IMG/VR virus record: IMGVR_UViG_3300037851_000445
Location: 6,729-70,728 of that record
Length of the DNA stretch: 64,000 nucleotides
From: a virus
Direction: 5' to 3' (one strand)
The notes under the pieces are model-generated. The model made no database searches and was not told the origin of the DNA. It saw only the letters and a program-made list of their open reading frames with translations. A program made the position numbers and the translations under genes. Below are positions 24,003 through 57,136 of this stretch, piece after piece. The number at the start of each line of letters is the position of its first letter. The stretch's first letter is position 1.

Positions 24003-27000
24003 ATGCCGCGTCTTGACGATGCCCCCATCGTTATTGGGGGTGCACTGGCGGATGCCTACGCCGCCCCGACCGAGCTAGAGGTCGCGCAGGAACAAGCCCT
24101 CCAAGATAAAGCCACCTCCGGGCCGCTCATGCACGGGCTCCGCTCTGGGTGGCTCGGCGTGCGGGGCGGCCTCACCTCTCTCGCGGGCACCGCCGCCGAG
24201 AACATGGGGCTGACGGACTTCGCCAACGCGCGCTTCCGCGAGGCGGACCTCTTCGCTCAGCAGGCGGAGGCCGCGGCGCCAGAGGTGCGGGACTACCGCG
24301 CCGTCAAGGATCTCCGTTCCGCGGCGGTCTACGCCCTGGGGCAGCTCGGGAACGCGGCCGCGACGATGGGGCCGACGGTCCTCACCGCGCTCGGGACGCG
24401 CGGGAGGATGGTGCCTACGTTCGGGGTAGCCGGAGGGATGATGGCCGGCGAGCAGGACGTGAACATCCGCCGGGAGAGCCCGCAAGTGGGCGCCGCGGAC
24501 CGCCTGGGCTCGGACGTAGCACAGGGTGTCGTTGGCGGCGCGCTGGAAGCCGCCGTGCCCCTCGCGCTCGCCCGCCGGGCGTCAGCCGGGCTCGGCGCTG
24601 GGCGGATCGGGACCTCGATGGCGCAGGAGGCCGCCACGGAGGCGGCACAGACCGTCTCGGGGCAACAGCTGCACGGGGCGGTAGACCCGGCACGGGATAC
24701 CTCGGACGACCGGGCTGAGATCATCAACGCCGCGATCGGCGGCGCGATCGGTGGCGGAGGTGCGCATCTGGTCAGCAGTCTGCCGGCTGCGGCGCAAGAC
24801 GTCGCTCCGCGAGTCCGCGACACCTTCGACGGCACACTCGAAGGCGCGAAGAAGCTCCTGGACAGGACACCTAGCATCGAAGACCTCAAAGGGATCACCC
24901 TGCCGGACGAGGTCAAGGACATCGACGCGGCCGTCAAGTTCGTCTCAGAGACGGAGAAGACCGCCCGCGAGGCCGCGGCGAAGGCCGCGAACTGGGTGGC
25001 GGAGCAGCCGCGGGCGCCGGAAGGCCTCAAGAAGGCCATGAGCGCGGTAGCCGATAGGCTCCAGGACCCGCTCCTGGACCCGGACACGCTGACCGAGCTT
25101 ACCGAGAAGACGAAGGCAGCCGTTGACAAGATCAAGGTCGATGAGAAGGTCCGGAGAGTCTCGAAGCGAGTGCGGCAGTACATCGAGGACGCCAAGACCA
25201 GCGTCGACGAGATCATGGCCGGGCGAGAGGCTGGTCGGCAAGCCGAGCGGTCCGCCGGGGACTACAACTTCGAGGAGCTCTCGAAGGCCCCGCCGAAGAA
25301 AAGCAAGTTCGACATGCGCCCGCTCTGGTCGCCCTCCCCGCTCGGTAGCGTCGGCCCTGCCCCGTCGAAAGGGGTTGTCGGCGCGCCCAGCGACATCCGC
25401 ATGGGTCCGAAGCCGCCGTCATACAAGACGGCCGCCGCAAGGATCATCGGACCGCGCCTGGACTACACGCCGACGAACGCGCCGCGCACGATTCCGGAAG
25501 ACGAGTACACGCCGGCAACGCAAGAGCAGCTGCAGGCACTTGCGCGGAAGTACTCCAAGGACCCGAGCCCGGCTCCGCTCGAAGCCCCAGGCCGCGAGCC
25601 GGACCTCGAGGTCCTGGACATCATGACGTCGCACCTGGACCCGCAGTTCGTAGCCCAGGCCGACGCGGAGGCTCTGCTCGACCTTGCCGAAACCCACCAG
25701 GAGTACGTCAAGCACATCGTCCAGAAGACGGTCGAGCGGCGCGCCCAGGCGATCAAGACCGGCTCGATCCAGAACGACCCGGACGTTGCTCCGCTGCCGT
25801 TCCGCCCGGACGCCGAGCTGGTCGAGCTCTACGGCTCGCCGAAGAAAGCGAAAGCCGCGCTGACGGCTGTTGCGAAGCACATGTTCAAGCGCGGGGACTG
25901 GGCGGACGTCGGCGCGATCCCGGAGGATCTGGATGAGGTACCGCGGTTCGACCGGAGCCTACGGCAGCAGGCAACATACGGCAGGGCCGTTGAACTGGCT
26001 GTGGCGAGGCATCTGTACCCGCAGTTCCTCAAGACCCGCGACGTCCGCGCGCACGTCGCCAATCAGGTCGGCGAGCGAGTGACGGACTGGCTGCGCGATC
26101 CGCAAGCTGGAGCGGCGCAGGAGCTCGTTACGGACATCAAGAGGTTCGTGAAGGACCCCGAGGGCCTGCTGGACGAGCTCTTCGCTCTCACCGAGCAGCG
26201 CCGGTCGTTTGTCAGCGGTGCGCAGCTGCTCGACGACAACACCGGAGACCTCGTGGACCTCGAGTCCGGCGCCCCGCGCGACGAAACGCGCGGCGCGGAC
26301 CTGGCCCCGACGGAGCAGATCGGCCGGGTTGGCGACGTCGCCGGCGGGCCGAGCGGGGACCGCACCGGGTTCGGTATGCCGCAGCGCCGGGAGCCGACCG
26401 ACGTCGAGCTCCGTCTCTTCAAACAGATCAAGTCTGGCATCGCAAACTGGTTCCAAGACGTTCCGACCGAGGGCGCCAAGGAAGGGATCATCAAGACCAT
26501 GCCCCTCGGTTTGTACCGAGACATCCAAGAACTGCTGGAACAGGATGGGCTCGATGAGCTGAACCCCGATCACGTTCAGTTCATCGAAGAAACTCCGGCG
26601 AAACTGGAGACGCTGTACAACATCGAGCTCAGCAGCGCCGACAAGATCAAGCAGGCTCGCGAGCGCGCGGACGGGATCCTCGACGTGCTGCAAGGGCGCG
26701 GCACGGAGTGGTATGCGCTGTCGATCACGAAGCGGTACAACAGCGGCCAGTTTACCGTCAATCTGAACGTAGGCACGAAGCGCGTGGACACACAGCGGCT
26801 GTTCAACGCGATGAACCGGCGCTACAAAGGCGAGTACGACGCGAACGAGCGTACCGGCCAGACAGCGCGGAAGTACGTGTCGGACATGTTTGCCCGCGGA
26901 ATCTCCCACCTCGTCGCCGACGAGCGAGTCCGCCAAAACGCCCCGCTGCACGCGAACGCCTTCAACTTCGACGACGACGAAGTCCTGGTGACCCACAACG

Positions 27001-30000
27001 GCGTGAAGTACACGTGGGGAGACATCAAGCATGGCCAGCTCGAGCAAGGCGAGTCGGAGGTGATACGGCGTCTGCGCTCCGTCGACGACCCCACGCTGCA
27101 TGTCTCGCGCGCGCAGGGGGCGGAGGAGATCACCAAAGAGGCGACCGACGAGTGGGGCAACAAGCGTATCGAAAGCCGCGCGCTCGACGCGGCGCGCGTC
27201 GTGAAGAACAAAGACGGCACTGTGCGCGGGGTCATCGTTCCGGAAGACAACACGGACGCCGGCTACATCGCGGACGAAGCCACGCTCGCCGGTCTGGAAA
27301 CGGAGCACGAGCAATTCGAGGCGAGTGAAGCCCGCAAGGAAGCAATGCGCGGGATCCTAGCGAAGTACGCCAAAGAACGCTCGGGCATCAGTGCGGAGCT
27401 GAAAGCCGGCAAGCTCACGAAGGAAGAAGCGCGGGACCAGTTCGCCGAGATCTCGGCAGCTGAGAACCGAGAGCTCGAGGCCCTTCCGCGCGAAGAGGCC
27501 ATGGCAACCCTGCGCACTACGCGGATAGCAGACACACTGCCGACGGGTACCGAGCAGCGCAAGGCCATGAAGGCCGAGCGCGCAGCGCCCAGGATCCGCG
27601 TTACGGATGAAGAAAAAGCGGGACAAGAAGAGCGAGAGGCTGAGCGGCGGCGCATCAACCGAGTGACCGAAGAGGCTCGGCTAGAAAGGGCCGCGGAGCG
27701 CAGCAGCCCCACAGCTGTGCGGACCCACGCCGGCGCGGACACGGCTAATACCGACACCGTCTCCGCCCTCGCTAGGGACGCGGTGACTGCTCGCCAAGCC
27801 CCCAAGAAGAACAAGCCGCAGGAGACCTTCTCGGATGACGTTGCGGAAGCCCGCGCTATCGGGACCTCGGCGCAGGCCGCGACCGCCGCGAACTGGTTGC
27901 TGAACAAAGGGAACCTGAACGACGAGCAGAAGAAGACGCTGCGGAACCTGATGGCGAAGAAGAACTGGATGGGCGTGCTAGATTACGCCTCTCAGTTCGT
28001 GGAGCCGAAGCAGACGAAGATGCGGATCGACGGGACGGACGAGCTCCATCCCGAAGCGCAGGCGGCGATCCGCGCGGAGATCGAACGGATACTCGGCAAG
28101 AAGGACACCGAGGTGCTCTTCAAGAAGCTCGAGGAGATGGACGGCGCACAAGGGCGCTTCATCGACCTCGACCCGATCGAGCGCATCCAGATCTCCCTCA
28201 TGACCGGCGCTCCGATGGCTACGGCGTACCACGAGGTGGCCCACGCGTTCTTCGCGCGGCTCGCCAAGTCCAACTCCCCGCTGGCCAAGCGCGTGATGAA
28301 CGACCTGCTCGAGTTCTCCGCGACTCCGCGCACTCGCGCGCAGCTGGAGAAGCTCATCCGCGAGCACGCGACTAAGGACAGCGTCGACGACGCGTTGAAG
28401 CAACTGGATGACCCGGAAGAGCGCGTCGCGTTCGCGTTCCAACTGTGGCGGCAGGGCAAGCTGGAAGTAGGACCGCGCACCGACGGCTGGTTCAACCGCA
28501 TCCTGAACTGGATCGCCAAGGTGGTCAACATCGTGCCGAAGGATCAGCGCATTGCTGACTACTTCGACGCTCTGTATCGCGGTCGCTTCGCCAACAAAGA
28601 CGCGCTCACCGAGGTCCTAGCGGACGTCCGCCGGGACGACGCGTTCGATCAGGCCGACGCGAGCATGCCCCATGTGATGAACTGGGTGAACAAGGCGTTC
28701 AGCACCGCAGACGGCTGGATTCGGGACCAGAAGATCCCGGCCCTGACCGAGCTCGCCGACAAGATGTCCCTCGGCATGGGCGAGCAGAACAAACGCCCGG
28801 GCTTCATGCAGGCGAAGCACGTCGAGCTGAACAAGCGGATGAACCGGCTGATGGCTACCGTGCGCGGGAAGAGCAAAGAGCAGATGCGCATGGCGCTCGA
28901 CGCGCTCCAGAAGCAGAGCGGCGTGCCGCCGCAGGACGAGGGGGCGAAGGCAATCTACAACAGCGTGCGGGAGATCCTCGACGAGACGCACCAGTACATC
29001 ACGAAGGCCGGCGTGCGGCAGTACGTCGGGCGGAATGACGAGGGCGAGCCGCAGTTCGCGCCGATCAAGTACCTCCAGAACTACTTCCCGCAGATGTGGG
29101 ACCCCGAAGCCATCCGCGCCGACAAGGCCGGGTTCGAGAAGCTGCTCGCCGACTCCGGCATGAAGCCGGAGATGATCAAGATGGTGTACGACTTCCTCAC
29201 GCAAATGCACGGGAACAACGTGACTCTCGGGAAGAACGACCTCACCGGCGCGCTGCAGTTCCGCTTCGACGCGGCGAACGCGCGGATCCTGGACGACCTC
29301 AACAGGGACCTTGCGCAGAAGTACATGCAGAAGGACCTCATCTTCGCGATGAGCACGTACCTGAATCAGGCGGTGAAGCGCGCGGAGTGGTCCCGCCGCT
29401 TCGAGAACGGGCAGGGAGAGAGCACGATCCCTGACACCATACTGAAGGCGAAGGAACAGGGGATGTCCGACGCAACGGCGAAGGACGTGACCCGGTACCT
29501 GCAGGCCATGGAGGGCACCCTGGGGCACGACATCCCGCAGGAGCTCCGCAATCTGTTCGGCGGCCTCACGGTGTACCAGAACATCCGGCTGCTGCCATTC
29601 ACCCTCATGAGCTCCCTCGTGGACCCCATGGGGATCGTCGTGCGCGGCGGCTCCTTGGCCGACGCGTTCCAGGCGTACGTCAAGGGCGTGAAGGGCCTGG
29701 TCGGCAAGGGCGCCGATGAGGACTTCGAGCTGGCCTCTACGCTCGGAGCGATCGAAGAGGGCTCCGCGATGTCCATGTACGGGGACCTCTACGGCTCCCA
29801 GTACATGACGCCGTGGCAGCGCCGTGTGAACAGCGCGTTCTTCCGCTGGAACGGGATGGAGGCGTGGAACCGTGGCATGCGGATCGCAGCGACGCGAGCC
29901 GCCGTGCGCTTCCTGGACCGCCACGCTAAGGGCGCGAACCAGCACTCGGCACGCTACCTCGCCGAGCTGAACGTGACAGCGGAGGACATCGCCGCGCGGA

Positions 30001-30512
30001 ACGAGAAGTGGGCTGAGGCGGTGAACAGCTGGGTCGACCAGTCCATCCTGCGGCCGAACGCTTCCCAGCGCCCGATGTGGATGAGCGACCCGCACTGGCA
30101 GCTGGTCAGCCACCTGAAGCAGTTCACGTACAGCTTCCAGAAGGTGATCCTCGACCGCGTGTTCCACGAGCTCAAGCACGGCAACTCGTCGCCCTTGATC
30201 GCCCTGAGCAGCTACGTTCCCATGATGATCGCGTCCGACATCATGCGGCAGTTGCTCACGCTGGGCACGGACGAGCCCGACAAGGACTTGAGCCAGTGGA
30301 TGCTCCAGGGCGTACAGCGCGCGGGTATCCTGGGGCCGGCTCAGTTCGTCGTGGATGCTTACGGGGACGCGAAGCATGGTAAAATGGGCGCGGAAGGGCT
30401 GTTCGGCCCGAGCGCCGAGCAGTTGGCGGACCTGGCCCGAGCCACTACCGCCAAGGGCTCGATCTCCGACTGGCTCGTCCGAGCCGGACCGGTCAACGCG
30501 ATCTACAGGTGA
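24003..30512 (+). CDS. Large internal virion/ejection protein (2169 aa) with zincin HExxH metallopeptidase motif
   Basis: AAGGAG SD; AYHEVAHAFF at 28230-28244 plus downstream EERVAFAF; C-terminal helical domain typical of podophage ejection proteins. Confidence 0.75.
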   Translation: MPRLDDAPIVIGGALADAYAAPTELEVAQEQALQDKATSGPLMHGLRSGWLGVRGGLTSLAGTAAENMGLTDFANARFREADLFAQQAEAAAPEVRDYRAVKDLRSAAVYALGQLGNAAATMGPTVLTALGTRGRMVPTFGVAGGMMAGEQDVNIRRESPQVGAADRLGSDVAQGVVGGALEAAVPLALARRASAGLGAGRIGTSMAQEAATEAAQTVSGQQLHGAVDPARDTSDDRAEIINAAIGGAIGGGGAHLVSSLPAAAQDVAPRVRDTFDGTLEGAKKLLDRTPSIEDLKGITLPDEVKDIDAAVKFVSETEKTAREAAAKAANWVAEQPRAPEGLKKAMSAVADRLQDPLLDPDTLTELTEKTKAAVDKIKVDEKVRRVSKRVRQYIEDAKTSVDEIMAGREAGRQAERSAGDYNFEELSKAPPKKSKFDMRPLWSPSPLGSVGPAPSKGVVGAPSDIRMGPKPPSYKTAAARIIGPRLDYTPTNAPRTIPEDEYTPATQEQLQALARKYSKDPSPAPLEAPGREPDLEVLDIMTSHLDPQFVAQADAEALLDLAETHQEYVKHIVQKTVERRAQAIKTGSIQNDPDVAPLPFRPDAELVELYGSPKKAKAALTAVAKHMFKRGDWADVGAIPEDLDEVPRFDRSLRQQATYGRAVELAVARHLYPQFLKTRDVRAHVANQVGERVTDWLRDPQAGAAQELVTDIKRFVKDPEGLLDELFALTEQRRSFVSGAQLLDDNTGDLVDLESGAPRDETRGADLAPTEQIGRVGDVAGGPSGDRTGFGMPQRREPTDVELRLFKQIKSGIANWFQDVPTEGAKEGIIKTMPLGLYRDIQELLEQDGLDELNPDHVQFIEETPAKLETLYNIELSSADKIKQARERADGILDVLQGRGTEWYALSITKRYNSGQFTVNLNVGTKRVDTQRLFNAMNRRYKGEYDANERTGQTARKYVSDMFARGISHLVADERVRQNAPLHANAFNFDDDEVLVTHNGVKYTWGDIKHGQLEQGESEVIRRLRSVDDPTLHVSRAQGAEEITKEATDEWGNKRIESRALDAARVVKNKDGTVRGVIVPEDNTDAGYIADEATLAGLETEHEQFEASEARKEAMRGILAKYAKERSGISAELKAGKLTKEEARDQFAEISAAENRELEALPREEAMATLRTTRIADTLPTGTEQRKAMKAERAAPRIRVTDEEKAGQEEREAERRRINRVTEEARLERAAERSSPTAVRTHAGADTANTDTVSALARDAVTARQAPKKNKPQETFSDDVAEARAIGTSAQAATAANWLLNKGNLNDEQKKTLRNLMAKKNWMGVLDYASQFVEPKQTKMRIDGTDELHPEAQAAIRAEIERILGKKDTEVLFKKLEEMDGAQGRFIDLDPIERIQISLMTGAPMATAYHEVAHAFFARLAKSNSPLAKRVMNDLLEFSATPRTRAQLEKLIREHATKDSVDDALKQLDDPEERVAFAFQLWRQGKLEVGPRTDGWFNRILNWIAKVVNIVPKDQRIADYFDALYRGRFANKDALTEVLADVRRDDAFDQADASMPHVMNWVNKAFSTADGWIRDQKIPALTELADKMSLGMGEQNKRPGFMQAKHVELNKRMNRLMATVRGKSKEQMRMALDALQKQSGVPPQDEGAKAIYNSVREILDETHQYITKAGVRQYVGRNDEGEPQFAPIKYLQNYFPQMWDPEAIRADKAGFEKLLADSGMKPEMIKMVYDFLTQMHGNNVTLGKNDLTGALQFRFDAANARILDDLNRDLAQKYMQKDLIFAMSTYLNQAVKRAEWSRRFENGQGESTIPDTILKAKEQGMSDATAKDVTRYLQAMEGTLGHDIPQELRNLFGGLTVYQNIRLLPFTLMSSLVDPMGIVVRGGSLADAFQAYVKGVKGLVGKGADEDFELASTLGAIEEGSAMSMYGDLYGSQYMTPWQRRVNSAFFRWNGMEAWNRGMRIAATRAAVRFLDRHAKGANQHSARYLAELNVTAEDIAARNEKWAEAVNSWVDQSILRPNASQRPMWMSDPHWQLVSHLKQFTYSFQKVILDRVFHELKHGNSSPLIALSSYVPMMIASDIMRQLLTLGTDEPDKDLSQWMLQGVQRAGILGPAQFVVDAYGDAKHGKMGAEGLFGPSAEQLADLARATTAKGSISDWLVRAGPVNAIYR

Positions 30513-45085: not shown

Positions 45086-45602
45086 AAGACCATAGTGGTG
45101 AGAGCCATGCGCGCCCGCTTCCGTTGCATGTACCGTCGTTGGTTAGCGGCATGGTTCGGGCCGTTCATTCGGGACTGTTTTTTCTTTTTCGCCAGTTGCC
45201 CCGGCGTGACCCACGGCGCTGGAGGATGCAGGGCAAAGGCAACCAGGAGACTGAGAGAGCTCATGCTTTAGCGATGAGCGGTTCGTTGGCCGATACCGGC
45301 TCGGCGGCGAGATTCGGCTGGAAAGCGCTGTCAAGGTAGTCCCGGTCGACCTGCCCGATCTTGAAGGCCAGGCCGCCTTGGAACAGGATGACGTGCACGC
45401 CGATCTCATTGCTGCCGTCGCGTGCGACGACACATGCGTTGTCGAGGTTGATGATGGCGCCGGAGCCGGGGAGACGTACGAGGTTCATTGGTCGTTCTCG
45501 TCCATGAGAGCCAGCATCACGTGGATCTCGGGGAGACCGCGCGGATACCAGAAGTTGCGGAGGATGATGTCGAGGCTCAGAAACTGAGGGGCAGGCAAGT
45601 CG

Positions 45603-45869
45603 TCATCCATCAAAGCGGATCTCCAGTTGCAGCGGTTGGGGGTCTTGTCGCTGGCACTGCTCGATCAACGCTCGGTACAGTTGGCGTCCCACCAGGTCCG
45701 CGTGTCCTGCGAACGCAATCTGGTGGGCGATGAGCATGCATGCCGCGTCGGTTGTGCACTCGATGTTTTCGCCGTGGGCTTCTCGTGCGCTGAGCCTGAG
45801 CGCCTCTCCTAGTCCTTCGAGGCACGTCATCTCCTGTACGCGCAGGGCCATCATGTGTCTTTGACTCAT
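45603..45869 (-). CDS. Hypothetical protein (88 aa)
   Basis: Directly follows the Cas4-like gene. Confidence 0.45.
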   Translation of the reverse strand: MSQRHMMALRVQEMTCLEGLGEALRLSAREAHGENIECTTDAACMLIAHQIAFAGHADLVGRQLYRALIEQCQRQDPQPLQLEIRFDG

Positions 45870-46616
45870 CTATACTCCGACACTACAGTGGCCCGTACCT
45901 CCATTTTCCGTAGGCTTATACGGGCACCACTTGCAGTTGAACTTGTTGGGGGACGGCGGGAAGTCTTCGGTCGTGGTCATCTTCTCGCCGCGACTGGTGA
46001 AACCGGACATGAACCGGAGCGCTTGGGCTCTCGTGAAGTTCATGCCGTGAAGTTCGTCGAGGTCCAGATACCAGAGCTCGACACGTGCAGTCTCGAGTTC
46101 CGGGTTGCGCAGGAACATCCCAACGATGTACAGATTCATCTGTTCGGAGTGTTTAATCTCGTTGCCGAACCGCTTCCCTGTTTTGTAGTCGATGACGATG
46201 GCGTGCTTGGGAGTCGCTTGCACGGTCGCGTCCGGCTTGATGCGGACCCATGCCGTGCTGGACATCCATGCGACGGGCGACCACTCGCGGTCGAATGCCC
46301 ACTCCTTTTCCAGTGATACGAGTCCAAGCTTGTACAGTTCTCGCAGCTTCCCCATCTCGGCCTTGAACTTACCGAGCTCGGGGATGAGCTCTACGCCGCC
46401 TTTGACGTAGAACTCTGCAGCGTTGTGGATCCTTTCCCCACGCTCGTTTGCATGCTCGGTTTGACCGGGCTTCAGTGGACGGGGAGGTTCGGGAATGCGA
46501 TCCAGGAACTGCAGCTTCGCGCGAAACTTGCACTGTTCGAAAACGGTAAGTCGCGAGTGCGACCAGGCTTTGAGTACCATGAGTTCTTGTTCCCGAGGGT
46601 CGAAGAAGTCGCTCAT
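45870..46616 (-). CDS. Cas4-like PD-(D/E)XK exonuclease with 4-Cys cluster
   Basis: AWSHSRL..FEQC; ERGERIH; KPD..VIDYKTGK; Q..LY; C-terminal CKWCPY..C; AGGAG SD. Confidence 0.85.
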   Translation of the reverse strand: MSDFFDPREQELMVLKAWSHSRLTVFEQCKFRAKLQFLDRIPEPPRPLKPGQTEHANERGERIHNAAEFYVKGGVELIPELGKFKAEMGKLRELYKLGLVSLEKEWAFDREWSPVAWMSSTAWVRIKPDATVQATPKHAIVIDYKTGKRFGNEIKHSEQMNLYIVGMFLRNPELETARVELWYLDLDELHGMNFTRAQALRFMSGFTSRGEKMTTTEDFPPSPNKFNCKWCPYKPTENGGTGHCSVGV

Positions 46617-46629
46617 GATACTCCTATTT

Positions 46630-46960
46630 GTCTTGGTTGTAAAGGTGATGGAGTCACCATTCTACTTGGCCCGCGAGCCTTTCACGGCCCGGGCTCCCTG
46701 CAGGGGTGGCCAAATAATGCGGGGAACTGTCCGGACCAGCCCCGCTTCTCCAGGCCAAGTAGAATGGTGCTCCCTTCCTGCGGCGGTAACTGTACCGGTG
46801 CCGGGCTTTCGCCTCTCCGGCTTCCATCCGCTCCGCGACCAGGAAGGGCTTTCGCGCTGCCAGCGCCGGTTCGGTAGGACCGGAACCACCCTCCAGGGGC
46901 TACCTGGCTTCATTTCGTGCGGGTCGCACTATCCCGTTGCTATCGGGCTTGTCTTCGGAG
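46630..46960 (-). ncRNA. Candidate large structured non-coding RNA, family unassigned
   Basis: Perfect 17-bp helix 46655-46671/46753-46769, 9-bp helix 46772-46780/46840-46848, each closing multibranch loops; further hairpins; GAAA loop and a G-U extension favour the minus strand; no credible ORF. Confidence 0.6.
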
Positions 46961-46961
46961 A

Positions 46962-47411
46962 TCAGCTCCACGTTCTGTGCGCTTCGGCTATGTGCTCTTT
47001 TCCGCCGTACTCCTCGATCTGCCATCGCACGCCGCCGGGCACCTCGACAAGCGAGAGGCGGGCCAATGGACCCGACGCTTTCTCGGTACCGAGCTCGCCC
47101 ACAACCGCGACAAGGTCTGGATCGTCCCGTGGTATGTCGCGGTCACAGCACCAGAGCTCGCGCGCGTATCGCGCGTTCTCTTCGGTTCGCTCGCTGTTGG
47201 TCATCTTGTCCCACGGCTTGTCGTGGATCATCATTCCGCGGCGATCGAGCCGTACCGTGCGTTTCCCTGGCGGTACAAGCCAGTACCGGACCGGGCTGTT
47301 AGAGGTGTCCTCGGGCCACACCTCGATGCCCTTTCGTTGCAGGTATGCGAGGATCGCTTCGTGCGATAGGTTGAAGCCCCCAAAGCATGTGTTGATTACG
47401 ACAGTGGTCAT
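46962..47411 (-). CDS. Conserved phage hypothetical protein
   Basis: VVINTCFGGFNLS...RDDPDLVAVV.ELG.EKASG..ARL..VEVP..V.W.IEEY.G.EHIAE.HRTW; AAGGA SD. Confidence 0.7.
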   Translation of the reverse strand: MTTVVINTCFGGFNLSHEAILAYLQRKGIEVWPEDTSNSPVRYWLVPPGKRTVRLDRRGMMIHDKPWDKMTNSERTEENARYARELWCCDRDIPRDDPDLVAVVGELGTEKASGPLARLSLVEVPGGVRWQIEEYGGKEHIAEAHRTWS

Positions 47412-47430
47412 TTCTTTTCCTTGAAATGGG

Positions 47431-47513
47431 GGACCCGCGAACGCCGGCGAGATCGTGCACGCGCCCTCGTGAGAAGGCGCGCTCGTGGGCACGCTCGCCG
47501 GCGCCGCGGGTTC
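47431..47513. other. Long imperfect intergenic hairpin
   Basis: ACCCGCG/CGCGGGT (47433-39/47505-11), CGCCGGCGAG/CTCGCCGGCG (47442-51/47494-503), inner GTGC/GCAC and CGCGCC/GGCGCG. Confidence 0.7.
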
Positions 47514-47518
47514 TGGTA

Positions 47519-48556
47519 TTACGCCAGCGCCTCGTCGCGGTAGAACTGCACGACTTCGTTGTTGTCGTTGTCCACGAGCTGCACCACGTAGTTGTCGCCG
47601 TTACTGACGTAGTCGCGGAACATTTCTCGAGCCAGGCCTTCTTCGACGGCACTGAACGTCTCGCGCAGTTCAACGTCACCGTTAATGAACGCGTCTCGCG
47701 TGAGGTACGTCCGCACTTCCCACTTGTCCGGAAAGCCCACTTCGTCGCGATACGGCGCCTCGAAGGCGAGGTCCTCGGAGCCGTTGGCGCTGAACAGCCA
47801 GCTGTCGCCCAGCACGTGCCGGTGAGTGTCGTAGTAGTCTTCGACTTCGTCGATCACCTCGTACGCGCAGACGCGCATCTTGGTGTTGTTGTAGTCCGTC
47901 GGGATCGCAACGACGTCCGCCGGGTTCACCTTGCAGATGACCACGTGCCCATCCGCGTGTGCGAACGCCGGCAGGTAATCGAACGAGCAGAGGTGCAGCC
48001 CGTACGAACACGTGCGGTTCTGGTTTTCGTCGACCTTGTTCCGCGGAACGGACGGCGTGGCGCCGATGTGGTTCGAGATCCGGCCGCTGTGAATGTCCAT
48101 CCAGTCCTTCCGGACCGCCTTGTACGCCAGGAAGCAGCCATCTTCGGTGAGCGGCATCTTGCCGTAGTCGAGGAACTCGAACAGGCGTTGCACGACCCGA
48201 TAGCTCGGGTTGTCTTCGAGCAGCGTCAGGAAGTTCACGATCGGCTGCAACGGAAGGCCGGCGCGCACCATTTCGAGGATGCGCTTCTGCACGAACTCGG
48301 GGATCTCCTCGCCCTTGAACAGCACGGTCTGAGTGGCTTCGTTGACCGTGAGATCGTTCAACGACGATCCCCTCACCGCCAGGACCACGAGCTCGCCGTC
48401 GCTGCGTACGAGGTCTTCGAGTTCGAGGTCATCAGTGTTCGGATCCGCCAGTGCTTGGCTGATGGTCTTGAAGCTCGGCGAATCGGCGGCTATGGTCTTC
48501 GGGCGCCCGTCGATGATAAAGGTAAGGCCTTGTTGCGTCTGAATGTAGGGGATCAT
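47519..48556 (-). CDS. rIIB: rIIB-like protein
   Basis: NFL..LE.NPS.R.V..LF.FL.....PLTEDG.FLAYKAVR.D.MDIHSG...R.KVD.N.NRTCSYGLH.CS..Y. Confidence 0.9.
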   Translation of the reverse strand: MIPYIQTQQGLTFIIDGRPKTIAADSPSFKTISQALADPNTDDLELEDLVRSDGELVVLAVRGSSLNDLTVNEATQTVLFKGEEIPEFVQKRILEMVRAGLPLQPIVNFLTLLEDNPSYRVVQRLFEFLDYGKMPLTEDGCFLAYKAVRKDWMDIHSGRISNHIGATPSVPRNKVDENQNRTCSYGLHLCSFDYLPAFAHADGHVVICKVNPADVVAIPTDYNNTKMRVCAYEVIDEVEDYYDTHRHVLGDSWLFSANGSEDLAFEAPYRDEVGFPDKWEVRTYLTRDAFINGDVELRETFSAVEEGLAREMFRDYVSNGDNYVVQLVDNDNNEVVQFYRDEALA

Positions 48557-50886
48557 GCTGCGTCCTTAAGTGAGTTGAGTTGAACTAATTCCTGCTCGGT
48601 AATGAGCAGGGCTTTTACGCGGAGCGCCGCGTCTTCCGGCTTGAGTTTGAGGAGTTGCATGCTCAGTTCCTCGTGTTCAAACGCTTGCGCGAATGGGAAC
48701 TGCGAGAGAGCGGTGTTGTAGAACACGGAAAAGTCCAGCTTCTTGCTGTCGAGATTGATGGCGCCTTTTTGATCCATCAGAGACAGCGCGTTCTGAACTT
48801 CTGCTTTAGCCCGGCTTGCGATCATTGCCTTTGGGGATCGCCAGACCTTGTACTGGTTGTACACGTCCTCTAGACCGGTAGATTTTACCACCGGTTCGAT
48901 GACACGCTTGAGATCCGGGTGTTCGTACGCCGCCTCGATGAAGGCCAGGATCCCGTGGTTTTTGAAGGAAGTCTGCACTTCCATGTTGATCGGCGGCACG
49001 TCCATCAAGATCGTTTCGACTGCCTTGACGTTTATGAGGCTGCCCGCGATCTTCATGAAGAACTCCCACTTGAGGTCCTCGGCCTTTTTGTTCTTCGCCC
49101 ACCATCCGGCCGACACGACGATGTAGCCGGTGTACTTCCCGTTCAGCAGTTTGCGCGCGTTCAACGCGCGGAACGCGTTGATGGTAGCGCGTACTGCATC
49201 TTCGCTCACGGTCTCCCAGCCTTTACCGTCGGAAGTGCGGCCCGTTCGGTATTGACACCATCCATTGATTCTCTCCGAAGAAGAAACCAACCAGCATCTC
49301 GCGCTGGGCGGTACATCCTTCAGCTTGCATTTCGTTTCCTTGCCGGTGAAGTCCACCCACTCGACCTCCTGGTCTATGTCGAGCGGGGCCCCGCCTTTCT
49401 TTCGAGGTCTACTGCCCGCTGCGTAAACCGGTTTGGTGTACGGCAGGCTGGAGACTGGCTTGTAGCCTGGATCTCCGAGCGATCGCGAAATTGACTTCGC
49501 TGTGGCGAGATCCTTTGCCCATAGCACTTCTTGTGTGTCGATCGGTTTCGAAAGTAAGTAGTCCCGGATCCGCGCATGTACATGCTTCGTTGCGTTGTCC
49601 GTGTAGTAGATCTCGAAGTTCTTGTCCGGATGAATGTACAGGCTGTCGGTGAGTGCGGTCAGTACCTTCTTCTTGCACACTCCTTTCCGCACCTGCGTGA
49701 AGATTTGCGGATCCATCGTCCCGTCGGATGGCAGGCCACATTCTTTCCATCGAATCGTGACCCAGTCCGACCACATGTCGCTCACGAACTTCATGATGGT
49801 CGGCGTATCGCGTTTCACGTGCGTGAGGAGTTTGCGCACGTTGTCGGCGAACCGTAGGTTGTAGCCCGTGACGGAGCGCCATTTGTTTGCGACCGTCTCG
49901 CGCTTTGTCCACAGAGTGGATGTTGCGTCCTCGATGTCGTCGGCGATCTGGTTCCCCAGCCACGTAGCGATCTCAGTGAGCCGCGCCTCGATGAGTTGTT
50001 TCGTTTGCGCGTCGTACTGCAGCGCTTCACGGGAGGGTGTCACCTTCAATTCACCGATTCCGAATTCCAGAAGGAATGGCGACGATTGTAAGCCGTACCT
50101 GTTAGACGCTAACACGCCGGCCAGAGGGTGTTTATGGAAGTGCGTACCGATGTCTAGCAAATACGTGATCCCACCCATCGACACGTAGCTTGCGGTTGGG
50201 GAGTTGCCGCTCGTTGAATCGAATCGAGCCCAGCCGACGTGTTGCTCTTTGAACTTGATCGGCTGGATCGTCGCTCCCCCGATCACCTTCGGCTGCACCC
50301 GGAACCATTGGTAGACGGCCTGAGCCCGATCCTTGAAGACGCTAAAGTCCTCTGCCCTCACCGGGATGCGGATCTGCACCCCGGTGGGCCAAGTCGGTGA
50401 GGCGTCCTTTTCCTCGAGCATCGAGATTGTAGGGATGCCGTTGTTATCCACGTAGGCACCGTACGTTCGTTGCTTCCCGTTGTACGCTACGACCATTGAG
50501 TACTGATCGGTATACGCGTATGGGGACTTGCTCCCGATACCAAAGCCGCCGATCTCGCTGTTCGAGGATCGTTTTGTGCTAGCCCCATAGGTCATGAAGA
50601 GCTCCATGACCGTGTTGTGTGACATCCCCGTGCCGAAGTCCTTGATGTAGAACTCCGGGTCCATTTGAGTCGGAAGTTTCACCTCGAACGGCGTGTTCGG
50701 GCATCCATTCGCGACATGCGCGTCGAGTGCGTTGGCTGCAAGTTCCCGCACTATGGCGCGAATCGGATCTGAGTACATCTTCGCCAACATCTGGAACATG
50801 TGGGCGTTCATCGAGATCGTAGCACGCGCTGTCGCAAGAGTGCCGCGCGTAGCTATCACGTGCTGCTCGTCGTGTTGAAGTTTCAT
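48553..50886 (-). CDS. rIIA: rIIA-like protein (GHKL ATPase N-terminus)
   Basis: MYSDPIRAIVRELAANALDAH, KDFGTGMS, YGASTK..SN..IGGFGIGSKSPYAYTD; adjacent to rIIB. Confidence 0.9.
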   Translation of the reverse strand: MKLQHDEQHVIATRGTLATARATISMNAHMFQMLAKMYSDPIRAIVRELAANALDAHVANGCPNTPFEVKLPTQMDPEFYIKDFGTGMSHNTVMELFMTYGASTKRSSNSEIGGFGIGSKSPYAYTDQYSMVVAYNGKQRTYGAYVDNNGIPTISMLEEKDASPTWPTGVQIRIPVRAEDFSVFKDRAQAVYQWFRVQPKVIGGATIQPIKFKEQHVGWARFDSTSGNSPTASYVSMGGITYLLDIGTHFHKHPLAGVLASNRYGLQSSPFLLEFGIGELKVTPSREALQYDAQTKQLIEARLTEIATWLGNQIADDIEDATSTLWTKRETVANKWRSVTGYNLRFADNVRKLLTHVKRDTPTIMKFVSDMWSDWVTIRWKECGLPSDGTMDPQIFTQVRKGVCKKKVLTALTDSLYIHPDKNFEIYYTDNATKHVHARIRDYLLSKPIDTQEVLWAKDLATAKSISRSLGDPGYKPVSSLPYTKPVYAAGSRPRKKGGAPLDIDQEVEWVDFTGKETKCKLKDVPPSARCWLVSSSERINGWCQYRTGRTSDGKGWETVSEDAVRATINAFRALNARKLLNGKYTGYIVVSAGWWAKNKKAEDLKWEFFMKIAGSLINVKAVETILMDVPPINMEVQTSFKNHGILAFIEAAYEHPDLKRVIEPVVKSTGLEDVYNQYKVWRSPKAMIASRAKAEVQNALSLMDQKGAINLDSKKLDFSVFYNTALSQFPFAQAFEHEELSMQLLKLKPEDAALRVKALLITEQELVQLNSLKDAA

Positions 50887-51131
50887 TGGTTTCCCATTCT
50901 CGTTTTCACGATTTCACGCAAGAACTGAAGCTCTTCAGTCAGCTTCGTCAGCTTTTGCGTGAAGGCCAAGTCCTCAGCCCCCAAGATGTAGGAGAGTAGC
51001 GCCTCCCATTCCTGGACTCGCCACAGAGTTACGATCGTGGCGCGAAGCAAGTCGGTTGTTTCAAGCTCGGGAAACCACAGCTTGATTGCTTCGGCCGTGT
51101 GTCGGTTTCCCATCTCTTCAGCCGGACTCAA
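50883..51131 (-). CDS. Hypothetical protein (82 aa)
   Basis: ATGA overlap with rIIA. Confidence 0.5.
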   Translation of the reverse strand: MSPAEEMGNRHTAEAIKLWFPELETTDLLRATIVTLWRVQEWEALLSYILGAEDLAFTQKLTKLTEELQFLREIVKTRMGNQ

Positions 51132-56963: not shown

Positions 56964-57048
56964 TCTTCTCTTTTCTTTTCTAAATTATATAAAAGAGGGG
57001 GAAAGAGGGGAAAAGAGGGGGTAGGGGTGTGGGGGTAAAAGAAAGGGG
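56964..57048 (+). repeat. Polypyrimidine/polypurine tract with six G4-5 runs
   Basis: TCTTCTCTTTTCTTTTCT, AT-rich spacer, then G-runs at 56997, 57007, 57017, 57024, 57031 and 57045. Confidence 0.8.
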
Positions 57049-57106
57049 AAAGTGCATAACACGCACTTTTGAAGGACCCCGCGCCCCATGTAACTGGGCC
57101 TGAGAA

Positions 57107-57136
57107 GGCAAAATGACGGAGCTCCGTCATTTTGCC
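57107..57136. repeat. Perfect 30-bp palindrome
   Basis: GGCAAAATGACGGAG|CTCCGTCATTTTGCC, no loop. Confidence 0.95.

Follow-up and report, generated by a model that had tools for sequence, protein, structure and literature searches.

Genomic context of the gap upstream of the nuclease gene

The window analysed here, a stretch of 64,000 nucleotides, makes up most of the 71,790-bp IMG/VR record of a freshwater phage. Among the sequencing runs listed as containing it, two were DNA runs and none was an RNA run. An identical phage is present in a second freshwater sample, as contigs from sequencing runs, with no variants between the two. Genes in the arm from ~32 to 62 kb are read on the minus strand, which is therefore the sense strand of the operon described below. 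As listed in Table 1, the local operon consists, in transcription order, of rIIA, rIIB, the phrog_16527 gene and a PD-(D/E)XK nuclease gene, followed by small ORFs and then by a SNF2 helicase and a family A polymerase. No function is assigned to phrog_16527: a Pfam search gave no match, and the Atlas returned viral hypothetical clusters only. Among named phages, Pseudomonas phage KPP25 and its kin (Kochitakasuvirus) come nearest, with a nuclease identity of just 41%. In KPP25, less than 100 nt separates the nuclease gene from its upstream neighbour, whereas the gap in the window measures 345 nt. A search of the literature on KPP25-like phages found nothing on intergenic RNA.

Two gene starts near the gap deserve comment. 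The mechanical ORF listing gives the phrog_16527 gene as a 176-aa ORF with a GTG start (46962-47492, minus strand). This is too long, since its first 27 codons overlie a hairpin (47412-47492), and the start is likely the ATG at 47411, which gives a protein of 149 aa, in agreement with database protein P0121. The nuclease family (46578-46616 on the minus strand of the window, and the homologues P0003-P0025) comprises a long form of 248-253 aa, with an MIEV.../MSDFF... extension, and a short form of 232-237 aa. In the long-form nucleases an internal Met at residue 12-13 coincides exactly with the short-form start, and it is conceivable that the nuclease is made as two isoforms.

Table 1. Positions of genes, structural elements and signals around the gap (window coordinates; z, folding z-score against shuffles)
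Feature	Position	Strand	Remarks
rIIA	48553-50886	-	First gene of the local operon in transcription order
rIIB	47519-48556	-	After rIIA
phrog_16527 gene	46962-47411	-	After rIIB; function unassigned; ATG at 47411, stop at 46962
Non-coding gap (spacer)	46617-46961	-	345 nt, from the phrog_16527 gene to the nuclease gene
PD-(D/E)XK (RecB/Cas4-like) nuclease	45870-46616	-	Start at 46616
Nuclease leader	46614-46643	-	TTTACA 46638-46643; 17-nt spacer; TATCAT 46615-46620; SD AGGAG 46621-46625; ATG 46614-46616
Four small hairpins after the phrog_16527 stop	46849-46961	-	In the MFE fold; z +0.1 minus, +0.75 plus; chance level
Second junction	46770-46850	-	9-bp helix 46840-46848/46772-46780 with GGC-GAAA-GCC loop; z -3.3 sense, -1.6 antisense
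Long-stem domain	46650-46775	-	~23-bp closing helix with 81-nt branched interior; z -6.2 sense, -5.8 antisense
Interior of the long helix	46672-46752	-	GCGGGG/CCCCGC, CCC-UGCA-GGG and GUGAAA hairpins; z -0.6 minus, +0.3 plus; chance level
GGUGA-CUCCA-UCACC hairpin	46644-46658	-	-5.6 kcal/mol alone; pair probability in context ~1e-5
Hairpin between rIIB and the phrog_16527 gene	47433-47511	-	~31 bp, imperfect; 21 nt before the ATG at 47411; z -6.2
Hairpin before rIIA	50913-50963	-	Inverted repeat I25; ~26 nt before the start codon; z -4.5 sense, -2.6 antisense

Coding potential and known RNA families

All six frames of the gap scored as non-coding, like out-of-frame sequence. The single candidate gene, an 83-codon ORF at 46662-46913, has a GC content that is flat by codon position and a codon score of -0.39, again as in out-of-frame sequence. 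A search among 1.84 billion representative proteins returned one match, a 1075-aa protein that aligned in ten separate pieces and that we read as repetitive. No gene remnant was detected in the gap by tblastx against all fetched loci of related phages. A search of the whole window with Rfam 15, which includes tRNA, tmRNA, ribozymes, GOLLD, ROOL and Y RNA, gave 0 matches at the gathering threshold, and at E<=10 over 46300-47300 there were only two chance matches, both outside the gap. An intact or decayed tRNA was likewise rejected: ARAGORN found none in the window, and RF00005, run at E<=1 over all 71.8 kb of the genome, gave none either, while the same tools do detect the tRNAs of relatives. 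The original prediction had described the gap as a non-coding RNA without recognisable hallmarks of tRNA, tmRNA, SRP, RNase P or introns, and these searches agree with it.

Folding signal in the gap

The minimum free energy (MFE) of the whole gap was -151.5 kcal/mol on the minus strand, with a z-score of -3.8 compared to shuffled sequences, versus -1.8 for the plus strand. Nearly all of this folding signal lies in the long helix built on a 17-bp repeat, with a smaller signal from the 9-bp helix that closes the second junction (Table 1). As the signal is confined to the long-stem domain and the 9-bp junction, only these two closing helices are real. The 17 perfect base pairs (46655-46671/46753-46769, repeat I12) form the longest perfect non-palindromic inverted repeat of the window. 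By our own arithmetic, a perfect 17-bp repeat within 300 nt is expected ~1e-3 times, and of 9-bp repeats taken alone many are expected by chance in 64 kb. The long helix continues with a U.G and a G-C pair on the inside and with GGAG/CUCC, next to one bulged A, on the outside. Both extensions exist on the minus strand only, as do the GNRA-type loops of the gap. The pair probability of the long helix was ~1.0.

These results confirm the 17-bp helix and its minus-strand extension as first described, and the small hairpins, the 9-bp helix, the GGC-GAAA-GCC loop and the GGUGA-CUCCA-UCACC hairpin listed alongside are all present in the sequence. The wider picture of a helix-packed, multi-domain fold was borne out for the long stem and the 9-bp junction, and not for the upstream hairpins and interior arms, which fold at chance level; the many listed arms are what sequence of 62% G+C yields by chance. 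It had further been proposed that the long helix competes with the GGUGA-CUCCA-UCACC hairpin, and a cis switch for the nuclease-helicase-polymerase operon was one of the roles suggested. The pair probabilities of the two (Table 1 and above) leave no competition at equilibrium, and the Shine-Dalgarno (SD) sequence of the nuclease gene takes part in neither fold, so that such a switch lacks a thermodynamic basis. A long-range CUCC/GGAG pairing between the 5' end of the gap and the nuclease SD, which does occur in the MFE fold, was discarded since it spans no more than 4 bp and the relatives L096 and L085 described below do not conserve it. As for a partnership between the RNA and the Cas4-like nuclease, adjacency is the only link between the two.

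Two further hairpins lie in the same operon, before the phrog_16527 gene and before rIIA (Table 1). With the former on one side and the long stem on the other, the accessory phrog_16527 gene is bracketed by stems on both sides. In relative L096 the rIIB/phrog_16527 junction also carries a hairpin, in that case a perfect one of 15 bp with unrelated sequence. The hairpin before rIIA may fall inside a weakly scoring 76-aa ORF (50883-51113).

Stems and gaps in related phages

Homologues of the nuclease number over a thousand, and for the comparison of relatives we used ~180 loci (80 IMG/VR loci, 80 metagenome loci and ~20 Logan/ENA contigs; L numbers denote individual loci). A blastn search of 50,697 phage records with 46400-47200 as the query found nothing. 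When the gap was compared with all fetched loci by blastn, nhmmer and tblastx, DNA similarity was found only at the 28-nt leader in L085. A covariance model built from the single sequence 46644-46850 matched only itself over 100 sources, and pattern searches of IMG/VR returned one chance match for the leader pattern and none for the repeat arm of L096. Most of the ~180 loci have less than 100 nt before the nuclease gene. Several 65-68% relatives have the nuclease gene immediately next to rIIB or to a small gene. In L091-L094 this neighbour is rIIB, without a phrog_16527 gene between the two; the phrog_16527 gene and its flanks thus behave as an insertion.

The most informative relative is represented by two contigs from the same study that both end in the gap: L085, which carries a nuclease of 87% identity, and L096, which carries rIIA, rIIB and a 56% homologue of the phrog_16527 protein. 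L096 ends in 30 nt that, once reverse-complemented, match the opening 30 nt of L085 exactly. Graph assembly with k=31 breaks in this manner where a perfect inverted repeat exceeds k-1 in length, and these contig ends therefore place in the 87% relative an inverted repeat of 30 bp or more, the arms of which are AT-rich. The repeat starts ~10 nt after the phrog_16527 stop and ends ~31 nt before the nuclease ATG, and this phage has neither the 5' domain nor the 9-bp second junction. Its arms share only CATTCTA/TAGAATG with those of the window; the flanking positions have changed on both strands, and the pairing is still perfect. The leader CTTTACAA...AGGAGTATCATG is conserved in the 87% relative, with 89% identity over 28 nt in L085.

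In the 67% relatives (L086/87 and L088/89) the gap measures 332-372 nt and contains a tRNA-Tyr gene followed by a ~20-bp stem that encloses two or three hairpins and ends ~35 nt before the ATG. The flanks of L086 and L088 are 97-100% identical, whereas their stem interiors are non-homologous. An invertible segment was rejected here, as the interior of L088, compared by eye, is unlike the reverse complement of that of L086. A second mosaic block, with 64-86% identity and indels in otherwise 100% identical DNA, separates the two loci inside an 84-aa gene upstream of the tRNA (L086 795-989). In a 56% relative (L176) a long hairpin, again sense-biased, lies immediately against the start codon. The sense fold was more stable than the antisense fold in each of these elements: -74.0 versus -68.5 kcal/mol for the window domain, -50.6 versus -37.5 kcal/mol for L086, -64.6 versus -48.3 kcal/mol for L088 and -51.5 versus -43.0 kcal/mol for L176. 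The stems of L086 and L088 contain 5-7 G.U pairs.

Many lineages carry tRNA genes or arrays (up to 9 genes) just before or after the nuclease gene, with tRNA-Tyr often the nearest; they lie upstream in L023, L086-L088 and L148, and downstream in L005, L054, L091-L093, L121, L132, L135 and L153. Taken together, these arrangements indicate that the junction before the nuclease gene is plastic. The long stem is kept only in the closest lineages (3-4 neighbouring ones), each time with a different sequence. A homologous element with covariation across its helices, as expected of a conserved class of structured non-coding RNA, did not emerge from the ~180 loci; only the closing helix is retained. 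The original prediction of a new class of ~330-nt, multi-domain RNA is therefore not supported as a conserved class: even the 87% relative lacks its 5' half, its interior is swapped, and most relatives have no such gap. What survives of the expected structure conservation under sequence change is the closing stem, both arms of which have changed in the near lineages, and this does not extend to the interior or the 5' domain.

A proposed double-stranded stem in the operon mRNA

We propose, with a probability of roughly 45%, that the operon mRNA forms a double-stranded stem between two cistrons at 46650-46775, of the type that serves RNase III processing or mRNA stability, and that this stem lies beside a lineage-specific spacer. 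The comparison of near relatives suggests that selection keeps a long stem at a fixed place before the nuclease leader, mostly one that folds better on the sense strand. It is this fixed place, the usual sense bias and the membership of a series of stems in the operon that lead us to read it as a processing or stability stem. Since the rest of the gap folds like shuffled sequence and is missing from relatives, we favour an ordinary hairpin between genes over a new RNA class.

The stem would be transcribed as part of the polycistronic mRNA rIIA-rIIB-phrog_16527-nuclease-helicase-polymerase, and would then be either cleaved or protective. Its core would be the ~23-bp sense-strand helix, which ends 33 nt before the nuclease start codon and would be one of three such stems, preceding rIIA, the phrog_16527 gene and the nuclease gene, respectively. 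Host RNase III, or a similar nuclease specific for double strands, may cut the stem; alternatively, the stem may block exonucleases. Either activity could uncouple the accessory phrog_16527 message, in its stability and translation, from the message for the nuclease, helicase and polymerase. The 81-nt branched interior and the 190-nt 5' part would be lineage-specific filler, at a place where related phages hold tRNA or small accessory genes.

An idealised RNase III substrate measures 22 bp, or two helical turns, and the polycistronic early mRNA of phage T7 is processed at five such signals (PMC3867540). The ~23-bp sense helix, with its one bulge, reaches the ~20-22 bp of double-stranded stem that characterises an RNase III-type site, a length that is itself idealised and may not be that of the host enzyme. 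Several observations speak against a processing stem. The arms pair without a mismatch, over 17/17 positions in the window and at least 30/30 in L096/L085, which would equally fit homogenisation at the DNA level or a recent origin; the antisense fold of the window domain is nearly as good as the sense fold; and most relatives have no stem at all before the nuclease gene. T7-type RNase III sites, moreover, usually combine an internal bubble with a simple loop, rather than enclosing an 81-nt branched interior.

The first two of these observations also feed the first alternative, in which the inverted repeat acts as DNA: as a cruciform or hairpin site, as a recombination footprint at the border of an inserted accessory gene, or perhaps as a site that binds a protein or is related to replication. 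The repeat, which is perfect both here and in the AT-rich arms of L096/L085, would be kept so by template switching from one arm to the other or by gene conversion, and the wholesale exchange of the interior between near-identical flanks in L086 and L088 is a signature of DNA recombination. It also suits this explanation that hairpins lie on either side of the phrog_16527 gene, that many relatives lack this gene at the junction of rIIB and the nuclease gene, and that the window domain folds almost as stably in antisense. A DNA element would not, however, account for the G.U pairs and/or the much weaker antisense folds in L086, L088, L176 and the rIIA hairpin. Furthermore, arms that are 81 bp apart are unsuited to a dimeric operator, no second copy of the element or of its arms exists elsewhere in the genome, and a better origin-like candidate is found at 56964-57136. 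All in all, we consider a DNA-level explanation unlikely. The origin-like region contains a perfect 30-bp palindrome (57107-57136, with overlapping 19-nt arms) upstream of the primase-helicase gene, and this is a better candidate than the gap.

Another explanation, which we regard as rather improbable, is that the gap marks a transcriptional boundary, where a terminator or attenuator would stop read-through from rIIA-rIIB-phrog_16527 ahead of a promoter for the nuclease gene. A promoter-like element of the sigma-70 type (TTTACA-17-TATCAT, 46643-46615) does overlap the nuclease start codon with its -10 hexamer, and the hairpin lies just upstream of it. Its -35/17/-10 geometry is kept in L085, in L086/88 (TTGACA-17-TATGAT), in L090 (TTGACT-17-TATGCT) and in L091 (TTGTAA-17-TATGAT), but the wider sample of relatives shows no consistent promoter. 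The match to the -10 hexamer is, besides, partly forced by the ATG together with an Ile or Ser codon, and a transcript from this promoter would begin inside the annotated nuclease ORF, downstream of a well-placed AGGAG-N5-ATG. Regarding termination, each of the three stems lacks a U-tract behind it on the minus strand, and a search of the minus strand over 45500-48000 for intrinsic terminators, i.e. a G+C-rich stem with a U-tract, found none.

There is a slim chance that the gap yields a free structured RNA, new and narrowly distributed, in which either the ~125-nt stem domain or the whole ~330 nt is processed from the operon transcript and the long stem serves as terminal helix; in essence this is the idea of the original prediction. 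Such an RNA would be consistent with a gap that is non-coding, highly structured on the sense strand and without an Rfam match, and with GNRA-type loops that occur in sense only. In L086/L088 the stem element directly follows tRNA-Tyr, and the tRNA genes of relatives at the same junction point to a place where processed stable RNAs are made. Conversely, the interior and the 5' domain are unconserved at any distance sampled, with the 5' domain missing from the 87% relative, and the arms within the fold do not exceed chance level. A free RNA would also have to do without its own promoter or terminator, as no sigma-70-type promoter was found on the minus strand upstream of the stem element.

Similarly small is the probability we assign to a slot bounded by a hairpin, at a hot spot for tRNA and accessory genes, the interior of which is swapped fast. 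Such a slot could be a site of hairpin-targeted DNA insertion or exchange, or could produce a processed stable RNA whose terminal helix is fixed and whose interior evolves fast and possibly interacts with the host or its defences. Two remaining candidates were set aside: an integron attC-like site, as the arms lack the R'/R'' core, and a repeated promoter or motif, as the 11-mers of the gap show no meaningful recurrence in the rest of the window.

If the element is indeed a processing or stability stem, the finding is an ordinary one: this KPP25-like freshwater lineage would join the phages whose long operon mRNAs are interspersed with double-stranded stems, and it would show an accessory gene that is insulated from the replication genes. 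The unusual point is the combination of a conserved stem with a fast-replaced interior, beside a tRNA hot spot. The analysis also carries a caution, as in a genome of 60% G+C most of a rich-looking, multi-helix fold turned out to be at chance level.

Comparison with known systems

Among known elements, the intercistronic palindromes of the REP/BIME type stabilise upstream mRNA, as in malE-malF of E. coli. The stem resembles them in being a stable hairpin between co-transcribed genes, which could set different levels for neighbouring cistrons. REP elements form a family of repeated sequences, unlike the stem described here, which is single-copy in the genome. In comparison with the RNase III signals of T7, the stem differs in that it is perfect and without an internal bubble, in that its loop is a branched segment of 81 nt, and in that its cleavage is putative. 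The resemblance to the hairpins of the T7 early region lies in stems of about two turns that are placed between the genes of a phage operon, some dozens of nt ahead of the following start codon, with several of them per operon and defined by structure rather than sequence (PMC3867540).

GOLLD, ROOL and the small stable RNAs that lie beside the tRNA genes of T4 are, like the gap, phage-borne, non-coding and structured, and the locus carries tRNA genes in the relatives. The element differs in that it is much smaller than GOLLD or ROOL, has no conserved core and lacks an Rfam match even at E<=10; in the nearest relatives its interior and 5' domain are variable or missing. Intrinsic (Rho-independent) terminators likewise place a stable stem at a gene end, but here the coding strand has no U-tract after the stem, and the stem is far longer than usual.

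Elsewhere in the window, a gene on the plus strand (24003-30512) encodes a 2169-aa virion protein that strongly matches the virion structural protein family phrog_30152, and residues 179-403 of this protein weakly match phrog_2206, the PHROG of the N4-type virion RNA polymerase (E 2.7e-8).
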